A program made the translations under genes and the position numbers. The notes under the pieces were generated by a model. It saw only the letters and a program-made list of their open reading frames with translations, did no database searches and had not been told where the DNA came from. 36,816 nucleotides of DNA from a virus (Duplodnaviria; Heunggongvirae; Uroviricota; Caudoviricetes), in the IMG/VR virus record IMGVR_UViG_2563366829_000018, positions 1-36,816 of that record; one strand, 5' to 3'. Below, piece by piece: positions 938 to 19,465 of the stretch. Positions within the stretch are counted from its first letter, which is position 1, and every line of letters begins with the position of its first letter.

Positions 938-1618
938 TTACCCCTGCCGCCCGATAACCACGACCTTTCCGCCCCCGCCTTCATCACGGGTGCTGATGTC
1001 CTGGGATATACGGCGGGAGCCAACCAGCATTTCCCCGTAAGGCACCGGCATCGGGTTCCCCTGGGCAATCATGTTATCCAGCGAGGAAAAGTACGTGTTC
1101 TGTCTGCCGTTATCCGTTGCGCGGTAATCCGGTGTTTTTGCCTTCGGGGCCAGCATCTGGGCCACACCGCCCAGTATCATGCTGGCCCCCAGTGAAAACA
1201 GCATCGTGGTGGCAGAAAAACCACCGGCACTCAGGGCTGTACCCCATAACGCCATCGAGGCACCGGCCGTGAAGAAAGAGCCCACGATGGCTGCCGCCCC
1301 CAGCACAATCTGCAGTCCACCCTTTCCGGCCCCGGCCAGTCGCGGCACAATGTGGATGACCGTTCCCTCACCCAGCTGTTCGTGAAGACGGGCGTACACC
1401 GCCTCCGGTGCCGTGTCATAACCGGCAATACGTATCTGGTACCAGCCTTCGTTCATCTGACGGCGAAAGCCCGGCATCTGCATCGACAGGGCGCGAATGG
1501 CTTCCGCTGCCGTGTTCACATACAGGCTGAGGCGGCGGCCAAATCGTTGTAAATCCCCGTGAAGGCAGATGCGTGCCAGTGGCGGTGACGCCAGACAGAA
1601 TGCGTTCGTCGTTGCCAT
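938..1618 (-). CDS. I: Tail assembly protein I
   Basis: 226 aa; ARICLHGDLQRFGRRLSLYVNTAAEAIRAL matches lambda gpI; correct position between K and J. Confidence 0.85.
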   Translation of the reverse strand: MATTNAFCLASPPLARICLHGDLQRFGRRLSLYVNTAAEAIRALSMQMPGFRRQMNEGWYQIRIAGYDTAPEAVYARLHEQLGEGTVIHIVPRLAGAGKGGLQIVLGAAAIVGSFFTAGASMALWGTALSAGGFSATTMLFSLGASMILGGVAQMLAPKAKTPDYRATDNGRQNTYFSSLDNMIAQGNPMPVPYGEMLVGSRRISQDISTRDEGGGGKVVVIGRQG

Positions 1619-15881: not shown

Positions 15882-16039
15882 AAGCAACTCCATCTGGCAG
15901 GTGAAAATAAAGTTTATTTATATATTTCAATTAATTGCAAACTGATCTAATGACAGGGAGAAAAAAATATTGTACAGGTGAAAAGAGAAATAACTTTTAA
16001 TTATCAATAAATTACCAAACATGCTGCCGCCGCCATGGA

Positions 16040-16090
16040 AATGCAAAAACTAGTCTTTTTCCGCGACGCTCCCGCCCCGTGGCAGGCCAC
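16040..16090. other. Candidate cos site (cosN-like)
   Basis: Minus-strand ACGGGGCGGGAGCGTCGCGG closely resembles lambda cosN (ACGGGGCGGCGACCTCGCGGG); about 180 bp upstream of the terminase small subunit, as in lambda. Confidence 0.45.
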
Positions 16091-16401
16091 CCCACCGGGA
16101 GGACCCGTCAGCCTGACAGCTCTGACGAACGTCTGATACAACGCCTTGCATGAATGGCATCGGGATAATCCAGAAAGGCATAGCATCGTGCCCACAAGAA
16201 TCTGTGTAAGTGTCCTGTTTCTTCCACCCCCGCACAGGACTGGCGAGCATGAGAGACAAACCCGCGAACCATAAACGCGGTAAAAACCCGGTGTGCATCG
16301 TTTTTGATTATTCCCGCACACTCGCGCAGAGGAGTCTCCCTGTCGGGCTGCGGTCTCTGTTAATGCAGGAATACGGCGACAATACCGCGCATCAGCAAAA
16401 C

Positions 16402-16869
16402 TTATTTCAGGCACTGAGTGCGGATATATTCCTGCGCCACTTCCAGCTGCTTCTGCATCAGCATCAACCGCTCTCTGAGAGTGAAATAATCCCGTTCAGC
16501 GGTGTCTGCCAGTCGGGGGCCGGTTGCATTATCCACGCCGGAGGTGCCGGTGGCTTCACGCACGGTACCGGAGCAGGTGGCGTTGATCCGCAGGCGCTTA
16601 CGACCAGCGGCAACATCAGCACGCAGAGTTTCATTTTCAGCTCTCGCATCGGCTAATTCCCTCGAGTATTTTGCATCGAGCGCAGCAACATCACGCTGAC
16701 GCTGCTGCATGTCAGCGATGGTGGCGTTCGCCTGCTTCAGCTCACTGACTTTTTTATCACGCTGTTCTTTGTAGGCAATGGCGTTATCACGGTAATGATT
16801 GACCGCCCACGACAGGCAGACGATGGTGCAGATAACCAGAGCATAAATAATCGCGGCGACTCTGCTCAC
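16402..16869 (-). CDS. Rz: Spanin inner-membrane subunit Rz
   Basis: GTG start gives [34 protein letters not shown], near-identical to lambda Rz; GTGA overlap with the endolysin stop. Confidence 0.9.
16464..16649 (-). CDS. Rz1: Spanin outer-membrane lipoprotein Rz1, embedded in the +1 frame of Rz
   Basis: [10 protein letters not shown] lipobox and proline-rich [27 protein letters not shown] match lambda Rz1. Confidence 0.85.
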
Positions 16870-18198: not shown

Positions 18199-18203
18199 GC
18201 ATG

Positions 18204-18235
18204 TAAAAAGGCCCCAACACATGTGCGTGGGGCCT
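18204..18235 (-). terminator. Intrinsic terminator upstream of the lysis cassette (7-bp GGCCCCA stem, then TTTTT on the minus strand)
   Basis: Read directly. Confidence 0.45.
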
Positions 18236-18434
18236 GAGAGTATACATGGTTTCAGTCAACTGCATGGTGCCGTGTGCCTCCCGGTGAATTCAGTACCAGC
18301 ACCTGAATCCGCGATTATCCCATATACCTACTCGCTGATTGCCCCTCCGCACAGGGGGATTCACCATGCCAGTTTCTTTTGACAAACTCCCCGCAAAACA
18401 GACAACTGTCAACCGTCTGAATTGTGAGACATTT

Positions 18435-18473: not shown

Positions 18474-18550
18474 TGGCGCGTTGTACTGGATTCGAACCAG
18501 TGACCGATTGCTTAGAAGGCAATTGCTCTGTCCGGTTGAGCTAACAACGC
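18474..18550 (-). tRNA. tRNA-Arg, anticodon UCU
   Basis: 77-nt cloverleaf folded by hand: GCGTTGT acceptor, anticodon loop CTTCTAA, TTCGAAT T-loop, encoded CCA. Confidence 0.85.
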
Positions 18551-18563
18551 AGGGTACAGATAA

Positions 18564-18640
18564 TGGACCACCATCGAGGACTCGAACCCCGCGCAACCAG
18601 CTTCGAAGGCTGGTGCTCTATCCTGATGAGCTAATGGCGG
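18564..18640 (-). tRNA. tRNA-Arg, anticodon UCG
   Basis: 77-nt cloverleaf folded by hand: anticodon loop CTTCGAA, TTCGAGT T-loop, encoded CCA. Confidence 0.8.
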
Positions 18641-18647
18641 TATGTGA

Positions 18648-18723
18648 TGGTGGCCCTTGCTGGATTTGAACCAGCGACCTGGCGATTATGAGTCGCTCGC
18701 TCTCACCACTGAGCTAAAGGGCC
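18648..18723 (-). tRNA. tRNA with CAU anticodon, ileX-like (Ile2 via lysidine, or Met)
   Basis: GGCCCTTTAGCTCAGTGGTGAGAGCGAGCGACTCATAATCGCC...CCA closely resembles E. coli ileX. Confidence 0.85.
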
Positions 18724-18751: not shown

Positions 18752-19465
18752 TCAATAATCAAGCCCTTGCCTGGATACATATCTGTCTGGCGGGAAGCCA
18801 TAATAGCGGTGAAATACAGAAATAAAGTAGGACCTGCTTGAATAACCGCATTTTTCTGCTATAGCCTGTCCATATCCATGCCGGGAACATAACATATTTA
18901 CAGCAACACGCATCCGCTCTTCCAGCAACAAGCGACTGAACATGCCCCCTTCATTTTTCAGTTTTGTCTTTAACAAACTCTCACTCATATGCAACTGTAG
19001 AGCAATCGCACCAAGCGTCCAGCTTGCTGATATATCTGTCTGAATTATCGCCCTGACTTTGGCACTTATGCTGGATAAACATCCACTTAAAAACAATGAC
19101 ATCCGTTCATCTGTTTCAAACAGAGACAGGCAGGCCATCATAAGAAACATATCCGTGGCCTCTCCGGAAAATCCCTGGCTGGTAATTAAAGCCGCAGCCA
19201 ACGCAGGATTGTTGGGTTCCAGCAACAGGTAAAGCGGAATGTCAGTCAGACGAGTCCTCGTCAGCTTATGCTGACTTTCCAGATATTGACTTACGACGGA
19301 TTCGCTTATATCGACAATTTTAACTTTGCCATAATGCATAAGGAAAAGCTCCCTGATGCATTTGGTGGCCAGAACAACTGAGCCTGGCTTAAGTGACAAC
19401 GTATCCTTTTCAAGAAAAATATTAATTGGGGAGCAAACCATGATAACTGAACAGACAACAGCCAT
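18752..19465 (-). CDS. AraC-family transcriptional regulator (prophage cargo, PatE-like)
   Basis: C-terminal AraC-type HTH (SESLLKTKLKNEGGMFSRLLLEERMRVAVNML ... GYSSRSYFISVFHRYYGFPP); AT-rich gene; start may be the internal Met at 19441. Confidence 0.75.
   Translation of the reverse strand: MAVVCSVIMVCSPINIFLEKDTLSLKPGSVVLATKCIRELFLMHYGKVKIVDISESVVSQYLESQHKLTRTRLTDIPLYLLLEPNNPALAAALITSQGFSGEATDMFLMMACLSLFETDERMSLFLSGCLSSISAKVRAIIQTDISASWTLGAIALQLHMSESLLKTKLKNEGGMFSRLLLEERMRVAVNMLCSRHGYGQAIAEKCGYSSRSYFISVFHRYYGFPPDRYVSRQGLDY

Follow-up and report, generated by a model that had tools for sequence, protein, structure and literature searches.

A probable cos site and conserved non-coding hairpin module between the lysis and packaging genes of a lambdoid Escherichia coli prophage

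The packaging site cos of phage lambda has natural variants in 21, N15 and Gifsy-1 that were defined by the Feiss laboratory: the 7-bp cosQ is highly conserved among lambda-like phages, bp 1-6 of the cohesive end and the flanking CG are conserved as well, and bp 7-12 are free to vary, Gifsy-1 differing from lambda at 8, 9 and 11 (PMC4669245). Here we describe the corresponding junction in a 36,816-nt stretch of viral DNA (IMG/VR record IMGVR_UViG_2563366829_000018, hereafter the window), a lambdoid E. coli prophage whose late genes all lie on the minus strand and whose cosQ heptamer, GGGTCCT, is identical to that of lambda. In order of late transcription these genes are holin, a DUF1327 gene, lysozyme, Rz (with Rz1 inside), a 508-nt gap, terS and terL. 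The gap is 100% identical in eight complete E. coli genomes, where it is without any RefSeq annotation; an identical locus is found in E. coli SCU-387 (NZ_CP051688, 2799795-2800302). As the lysis/packaging junction of a lambdoid prophage it would comprise three parts on the late strand, namely a module, a linker and cos, and its anatomy is probably that of a cos site accompanied by a conserved, non-coding hairpin module:

16401-15894: Rz-terS gap, 508 nt
16392-16212, minus strand (late-strand reading): conserved non-coding module of about 180 nt, starting about 10 nt past the Rz stop codon
16211-16107, minus strand: linker of about 105 nt between module and cosQ, 49.5% GC

The cos site and its flanks

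On the late strand, GACGGGTCCTCCCGGTGGGGTGGCCTGCCACGGGGCGGGAGCGTCGCGG (16108-16061) is collinear in alignment with the junction of lambda's right and left ends. Minus-strand ACGGGGCGGGAGCGTCGCGG (16080-16061) is identical to lambda cosN ACGGGGCGGCGACCTCGCGG at 16 of 20 positions, and the cosQ region, ACGGGTCC-TCCCGGTG, runs collinear with it and agrees with lambda at 15 of 17, the exact GGGTCCT included. As a composite, GGGTCCT-N15-25-ACGGGGCGG is found once in the 36.8-kb window (16106-16072, minus strand) and in 0 of 100 shuffles. With the nicks placed as in lambda, the predicted cohesive end is GGGCGGGAGCGT (16077-16066), preceded by CCACG and followed by CGCGG (16082-16061, minus strand). 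Eight of its 12 bases are those of lambda GGGCGGCGACCT; the left half GGGCGG is kept, a CG dinucleotide stands before each predicted nick, and the only differences fall at positions 7, 8, 9 and 11, those of Gifsy-1 falling at 8, 9 and 11. Such a distribution of changes, with the CG flanks and cosQ retained, is the pattern of the natural variants in PMC4669245 and thus supports the cos call.

The predicted left end at 16077 lies 184 nt from the terS ATG (about 185 nt upstream of the gene, against 190 nt in lambda), and the deposited genomes of phages cdtI and Tritos both begin exactly at the base equivalent to 16077. A preliminary description of this DNA had pointed to a 21-nt segment resembling lambda cosN about 180 bp upstream of terS and had named an alignment with lambda cos as its check; once run, that alignment bore the claim out through the collinear cosN and cosQ matches, as did the distance to terS and the ends of the two deposited records. 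From these comparisons the gap very probably holds a complete lambda-type cos, with cosQ, cosN and cosB in lambda order and spacing. The site is already known, being the same as that of phage cdtI, and there is nothing new in the site itself. Its parts are:

16106-16100, minus strand: cosQ heptamer GGGTCCT, exact lambda match, 22 nt upstream of the predicted top-strand nick
16083-16060, minus strand: cosN, from the lambda alignment, with predicted nicks giving a 12-nt 5′ cohesive end
16059-15894, minus strand: cosB-like AT-rich region, 30% GC
16045-16058, overlapping arms: palindrome AAAAAGACTAGTTTTT beside cosN in late-strand reading, from a repeat scan
16002-16014, plus strand: IHF consensus TATCAATAAATTA, a pattern matching only two places in the whole window
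15898-15907 and 15975-15984, plus strand: two direct repeats CAGGTGAAAA, 77 bp apart, from the repeat scan; candidate TerS binding sites

The AT-rich stretch between cosN and terS looks like cosB, with TerS and IHF presumably binding there. Its repeats are two copies of TTTTCACCTG, and the repeat scan found no third R site in this stretch. A tblastn search with lambda Nu1 returned nothing in the window, where the small subunit is instead a DUF1441/PHROG 141 protein. A DUF1441 TerS in place of Nu1 suggests that the site works as in lambda but belongs to the Gifsy/Fels/cdtI specificity group, with a differing cosB. By analogy with lambda, TerS would act at cosB, with bending by IHF, to position the gpA-type TerL for nicking at cosN, and cosQ would serve packaging termination at the next cos. 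Two points weigh against a lambda-type assignment: the TerS is not a Nu1-family protein, and the R sites depend on just two repeats.

Many E. coli prophages are cryptic, and the cos-like sequence could be a dead relic or, in another form of the same doubt, the hairpins described below could act as single-stranded DNA (for instance a priming or recombination signal in rolling-circle replication) rather than as RNA. We regard this pair of readings as highly improbable. Against a relic, the intact cos, terS and terL have identical or near-identical counterparts in cdtI, HannyBb and Tritos, which are isolated plaque-forming or inducible phages.

The spacer had also been called GC-rich in the preliminary description. 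This holds for cosN and cosQ (81% GC), while the module (55.8%) and the linker are ordinary beside the window as a whole (51.2%); the entire gap has 48.2%. In alignments, the linker is conserved only in phages that share the same cos type (mEp460, PhiR40_1 and HannyBb), and VT1-Sakai has an unrelated 33-nt stretch in its position.

Phage Gifsy-2 was considered as a close cos relative and rejected: its cos region is far more diverged, and the module is missing from it. In phage Ayreon (MF807953), an insertion of about 145 nt (~1826-1970) splits cosN just after ACGGGG and carries an open reading frame (ORF) with CxxCxGxG zinc-finger motifs, annotated as 'putative late gene regulator'; if cosN is split there, cutting must occur elsewhere or the insertion must be tolerated. 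The last ~40 nt of LR595861.1 (Lambda_4C10) read ...GGTTACGGGGC and then CTGTCTCTTATACACATCTGACGCTGCCGACGA, the latter of which we take to be the Nextera transposase adapter, hence an apparent adapter contamination at a physical DNA end.

Borders, distribution and coding capacity of the module

BLAST searches show that the segment 16392-16212 is common to hundreds of phages and thousands of genomes, whatever its flanks. Among 5426 complete E. coli genomes, 4632 (85%) contain the module, with a median of 2 copies and a maximum of 11, most copies being 80-95% identical. In 120 viral contigs collected by a conserved 27-mer for border comparison, the homology begins and ends at two shared positions, beyond which the flanks are unrelated. 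A full-length profile (nhmmer) matches lambda (46866-47043), DLP12, 933W, the Salmonella phage SPN3UB, E. albertii and Intestinirhabdus alba. The lambda copy occupies the space between the bor start and the lambdap78 stop, and blastn gives 83% identity with the module over 92 nt (lambda 46885-46974); the 933W copy lies between bor and terS, and that of DLP12 (K-12) in the borD-ybcV gap. Across the surveyed loci the module always separates the lysis cassette from terS, the neighbouring TerS belonging to one of at least four unrelated families, and where opposite-strand DUF1398/DUF3950 genes are present their stop codons adjoin its right end. We are highly confident that it is a conserved non-coding module homologous to the region upstream of lambda bor.

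None of bor, lambdap78 (DUF1398) and YlcI (DUF3950) gave a tblastn match in the window. Since bor is absent from the prophage, the lysis cassette is flanked on its 3′ side by the module. The preliminary description had offered the spacer as a deletion remnant or a non-coding element and had named a search against bor-region sequences as its check. That search found the non-coding stretch next to lambda bor, and the description is right in substance: the spacer has a 180-nt core homologous to lambda 46866-47043 and no bor. Of its two alternatives, the remnant agrees with the bor-region homology and the missing gene, but what remains is a discrete hairpin module and not a random leftover, and its junction with Rz is not private to this prophage, as it recurs in VT1-Sakai (an Stx1 phage), in Sakai Sp10 and in roughly one surveyed locus in four.

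Covariance models from Rfam gave no match at E ≤ 1 for the spacer or for five homologous loci, and nothing relevant was found in the literature on the bor/ybcV intergenic region. The module is thus undescribed in databases and has no assigned role even in lambda, while being very widespread, discretely bounded and non-coding. Two further observations concern the surroundings of other copies. In lambda (NC_001416), an ORF at 48112-48303 (minus strand) is 100% identical to K-12 YlcI (DUF3950) and missing from the reference annotation. In the HK629 and 933W loci, TGTTTAGGGTTTGTTTA (~1425-1441, minus strand) precedes bor by about 60 nt. It is not part of the module, and the window does not have it; we presume that it is a PhoP box, as it fits the consensus (T/G)GTTTA-N5-(T/G)GTTTA and the reported Mg2+/PhoP control of borD.

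Some records annotate ORFs in the gap, none of them conserved as a reading frame. The preliminary description had seen no credible ORF in the ~320 bp on the Rz side; taken literally this fails, given that mechanical ORFs do exist, and it stands as regards conservation. On the minus strand these are ORFs of 82 and 136 codons, both of which we rejected as genes since they span cosN and their sequence shifts with every flank; their PHROG matches are families of automatically called ORFs. On the plus strand, an ORF of 148 codons runs antisense into Rz. PHROG 17397 and 17757 strongly match the ORFs at 16050-16298 (minus strand) and 16210-16656 (plus strand), one spanning cosN and the other antisense to Rz, and these two families, like several database 'hypothetical proteins' here, are probably spurious ORFs. 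A 10-codon mini-ORF at the left edge of the module (ATG 16392) was rejected as well, its start varying among ATG, GTG, CTG, ATA and ATT with no Shine-Dalgarno sequence, as was a DUF3950 (YlcI/YnfO) remnant on the plus strand, for which there was neither a Pfam nor a tblastn match.

A further coding alternative is a plus-strand small protein (MRDKPANHKRGKNPVCIVFDYSRTL..., from 16249), which some phage and RefSeq records list as a hypothetical protein of 58-60 aa. PGAP and submitters have annotated it (e.g., WP_001205130.1 and ORFs in PhiR40_1 and Lambda_4C10), 37 of 38 unique variants keep its core frame open, and one variant has an in-frame 9-nt deletion. Nevertheless, its start codon is missing in many contexts, both termini vary with every flank, and in the window, where it has lost its stop, the frame continues antisense into Rz over 135 codons. 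The copies in lambda, DLP12, 933W and VT1-Sakai are cut short by frameshifts or stops. The pN/pS of 0.62 is no better than that of the five other frames (0.51-1.36), no Pfam, NCBIfam or PHROG family falls on the conserved part, and a search of 5.8 billion proteins gave 73 homologs of 35-91 aa, at least 66% identical, the named ones all from Escherichia/Shigella. It is very unlikely, in our judgment, that the spacer encodes this protein.

Hairpin structure, strand and possible role

A structure refined from an RNAalifold prediction was evaluated on an alignment of 39 sequences (A1). It consists of a long bipartite hairpin with an apical part, a small variable hairpin and a terminal hairpin, all in late-strand reading:

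16385-16379/16301-16295, minus strand: helix A of the long bipartite hairpin
16373-16363/16319-16309, minus strand: helix B of the long bipartite hairpin
16352-16348/16329-16325, minus strand: apical helix C
16347-16345/16340-16338, minus strand: apical helix D
16277-16275/16265-16263, minus strand: small hairpin E, variable
16240-16234/16218-16212, minus strand: terminal hairpin F, with loop motif GGAAGAAA
...GGGAATAATCAAAAACGATGCAC, minus strand: invariant A-rich 3′ arm
CTCTCATGCTCGCC in the window, CCCTCAT(A/G)GTCGCC in most copies: conserved single-stranded segment

In this structure 97.1% of cells are paired. Changes on both sides with pairing kept occur at 13 of 39 pairs, against 3.3 ± 1.4 in column shuffles (0 of 500) and 2-5 in slid controls. 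Hairpin F retains its pairing in SPN3UB and Intestinirhabdus with four of seven pairs altered on both sides; helix B of lambda has a compensatory swap from C-G to G-C; and Salmonella-type clades, which add extra compensatory pair types, carry a perfectly paired helix B of UAUCUCCACAU/GUGUGGAGAUA in the place of UAUUCCUGCAU/GUGCGGGAAUA in the window. The copy L154, an example from these clades, forms a perfect 11-bp helix B despite five changed positions, and minimum-energy folds recover helices A and B in the window, lambda, SPN3UB and Intestinirhabdus copies. The 37-nt 3′ arm (...GAGTGTGCGGGRATAATCAAAAACGATRCACACCGGG) is near-invariant in the alignment even where unpaired, amid flanks that turn over completely, which suggests sequence-specific recognition.

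Several points weigh against a selected structure. The folding energy of the whole module is unexceptional (z = -0.62), as are the values for the long hairpin in six copies (-0.45, -2.42, -0.72, +0.83, -0.23 and +0.86); given these weak z-scores, thermodynamic stability was dropped as evidence. The structure was partly hand-tuned on the same sequences used to count covariation, and a few divergent lineages supply many of the double changes. On balance, the covariation makes it likely that the hairpin structure of the module is under selection.

The same evidence bears on whether the module has a function at all. It could be a hitch-hiking recombination 'linker' or a deletion scar, recently spread with the lysis and packaging modules of lambdoid phages, as the mostly 80-95% identity of its copies, the folding energies, the lack of an Rfam family and the lack of detectable promoter or terminator signals would allow. 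Lambda has two copies of the hairpin F motif (...GGAAGAA...) at ~47015-47043 and ~48079-48106, one intact and one degenerate, which bracket lambdap78-lambdap79 as if the segment had been inserted through recombination at the hairpin, and they too fit a mere recombination junction. What speaks against this reading is that compensatory double substitutions hold helices B and F in lineages of ~76% identity (SPN3UB, Intestinirhabdus and the L150/L154 clade), that the 3′ arm stays near-invariant, and that sharp borders recur unchanged in many unrelated contexts. A functionless module is, in our view, rather unlikely.

A transition within a helix that produces G·U on one strand leaves A·C on its complement. 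In the 39-sequence alignment, read on the late strand, G·U occurs at 22 paired positions (187 cells) and A·C at 7 (12 cells), and in unpaired columns there is no bias between C↔T and A↔G (26 versus 30 columns). When Salmonella-type copies are included and the helices derived from alifold excluded, G·U occurs at 16 positions (156 cells) and A·C at 7 (17 cells); this weaker asymmetry (16 versus 7, one-sided sign test ~0.05) counts against a late-strand role, as does the fact that hairpin F adjoins the stop codons of opposite-strand genes in other phages and would fit a role on that strand too. As evidence for a structured RNA on the late-gene strand the asymmetry is modest: suggestive, not decisive. 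It does not separate late-strand RNA from late-strand single-stranded DNA, in which G·T wobble is tolerated too. As to the latter, we know of no primosome site or origin at the module position, and no search for such features was made.

Scans for promoter (-35/-10) and intrinsic terminator consensus sequences returned 0 sites on either strand between 15700 and 16700. This result bears directly on the alternative that the module works on the opposite, bor-sense strand, as the upstream region of bor or as a terminator or 3′ untranslated region of the DUF1398/DUF3950 genes, and is here an orphaned remnant after gene loss. The genomic context gives that idea some substance: the copies of lambda, HK629, 933W and DLP12 are on bor's side, 110-180 nt upstream of this gene; hairpin F directly follows the stop codons of lambdap78/ybcV and of the ylcI-like gene; a promoter predicted by the HK629 submitters overlaps the module edge; and some A·C cells of the Salmonella-type copies are G·U on the bor-sense strand. 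Beyond the empty scans, however, hairpin F has no U-tract on that strand, many phages, among them the window, VT1-Sakai and Sp10, keep the module intact with bor-sense genes on neither side, and the high-frequency wobble polymorphisms that give G·U on the late strand would amount to A·C mismatches on this one. Altogether we think a bor-sense role unlikely.

The preferred reading is a late-strand one. Judged from the base-pairing patterns, the chances are about even that the module acts as RNA on that strand, within the Q-antiterminated late transcript. As a part of this transcript it would be processed or protected at the lysis/packaging boundary; this is the likeliest of the roles proposed, and that the module is a processing or stability element (an RNase III-type hairpin or a 3′-end protector) is still doubtful. 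In broader terms we tentatively propose an undescribed structured-RNA family in lambdoid late transcripts, which might be a processing/stability signal, or act in trans via the A-rich arm, and so tune lysis against head genes.

The small RNAs (sRNAs) of E. coli prophages that were considered offered no counterpart. The Hfq-bound EcOnc11, an apparent Hfq-CRAC peak on the module (Tree et al. 2014, Table S2; Sakai 1946819-1946867, minus strand) was rejected as a coordinate-version artefact. Its listed coordinates, taken in NC_002695.2, land inside the Sp10 module copy (2147-2195 of that locus, the position concerned by this listing of an abundant Hfq peak), and calibration with AgvB shows that EcOnc coordinates are shifted by +128 to +139 nt between Sakai genome versions. 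The real EcOnc11 peak is the intrinsic terminator of the neighbouring ECs_1967, which stands beside the module, outside it, and is absent from the window. EcOnc10 and EcOnc12 are near-identical to EcOnc11 in size and peak area and may be copies. EcOnc52 (Sp4) is unrelated to the module. AgvB/AsxR and the Pas sRNAs were also rejected: their place is the pR′ moron site or its vicinity, upstream of the lysis genes, and not between Rz and terS, and the context of PasB differs.

Surrounding late genes and comparison with known systems

The genes on both sides of the gap were assigned as follows:

18132-17818, minus strand: holin
17399-16866, minus strand: lysozyme
16884-16402, minus strand: Rz (i-spanin), Pfam Phage_lysis E = 2.5e-49, TAA stop at 16404-16402, forming the upstream edge of the gap
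16649-16464, minus strand: Rz1, embedded in Rz, Pfam Rz1 E = 3.5e-21
15893-15354, minus strand: terS, terminase small subunit, Pfam DUF1441 E = 1.7e-44, PHROG 141 terminase small subunit
15345-13246, minus strand: terL, terminase large subunit of the lambda gpA family, Pfam GpA_ATPase E = 4.9e-81 and GpA_nuclease E = 1.8e-86

The start of terS is ambiguous: the longest ORF begins at ATG 15893, and PGAP places the start of an identical gene at the second ATG, 15881, which is preceded by GGAG at 7 nt upstream. Just upstream of holin there are an STnc100 sRNA (Rfam, 128.9 bits) and three tRNA genes (window 18199-18398 and 18477-18723, both minus strand), the latter annotated as Ile, Arg and Arg in a genome identical across the 508-nt gap. 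This stretch corresponds to the usual pR′/moron region of Stx-like lambdoid phages. The tRNA cluster is adjoined by a 237-aa ORF (18752-19465, minus strand) whose C-terminus looks AraC-type, possibly a regulatory moron in the late region.

Few unannotated conserved non-coding elements of E. coli prophages, Shiga-toxin phages and lambda included, are as widespread as the module, which keeps a fixed late-operon position; it also occurs in Salmonella and Intestinirhabdus prophages. Were it a processing or stability element, it would explain how lysis and morphogenesis proteins are made in differing amounts from one very long late transcript, and it would provide a handle for manipulating lysis timing or the release of Stx phages. 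For annotation, the 'hypothetical proteins' built on the module region are probably spurious.

Compared with lambda, the window has the same type of AT-rich, cosB-like stretch with an IHF consensus between cosN and terS and a TerL of the gpA family, and its cosQ is 22 nt from the nick (23 nt in lambda). A pair of direct repeats makes up the putative R sites, in contrast to the R3/R2/R1 arrangement of lambda, and given that TerS is a DUF1441 protein here and Nu1 in lambda, cosB sequence and packaging specificity must differ. The closest relatives are cdtI (NC_009514/AB285204; orf1) and HannyBb, whose TerS proteins are 100% identical to that of the window, against ~40% for Gifsy-2, Fels-1 and mEp460; from cosN to terS, the window is 96-97% identical to cdtI and Tritos. 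With mEp460 and PhiR40_1 it shares module, linker, cosQ and cosN, whereas cosB and terS differ; moreover, Rz and the module are separated in the mEp460 group by an additional small gene and a terminator, and in the window the module directly follows Rz.

The lambda bor/lambdap78 and DLP12 borD-ybcV regions present the same order as the window, long hairpin, linker and hairpin F, in the same position from lysis cassette to cos. In lambda the ~83% identity covers the core only, and the flanks are bor on the left and lambdap78, lambdap79 and an unannotated ylcI-like gene on the right, all of which the window lacks. For the RNase III hairpins (the T7 R sites, lambda sib and the N-leader) the resemblance is a functional analogy with no sequence relation: the module is likewise intercistronic in a long phage transcript and would present two helical segments, of 7 and 11 bp, with an internal loop between them, but its apical part is larger and variable.

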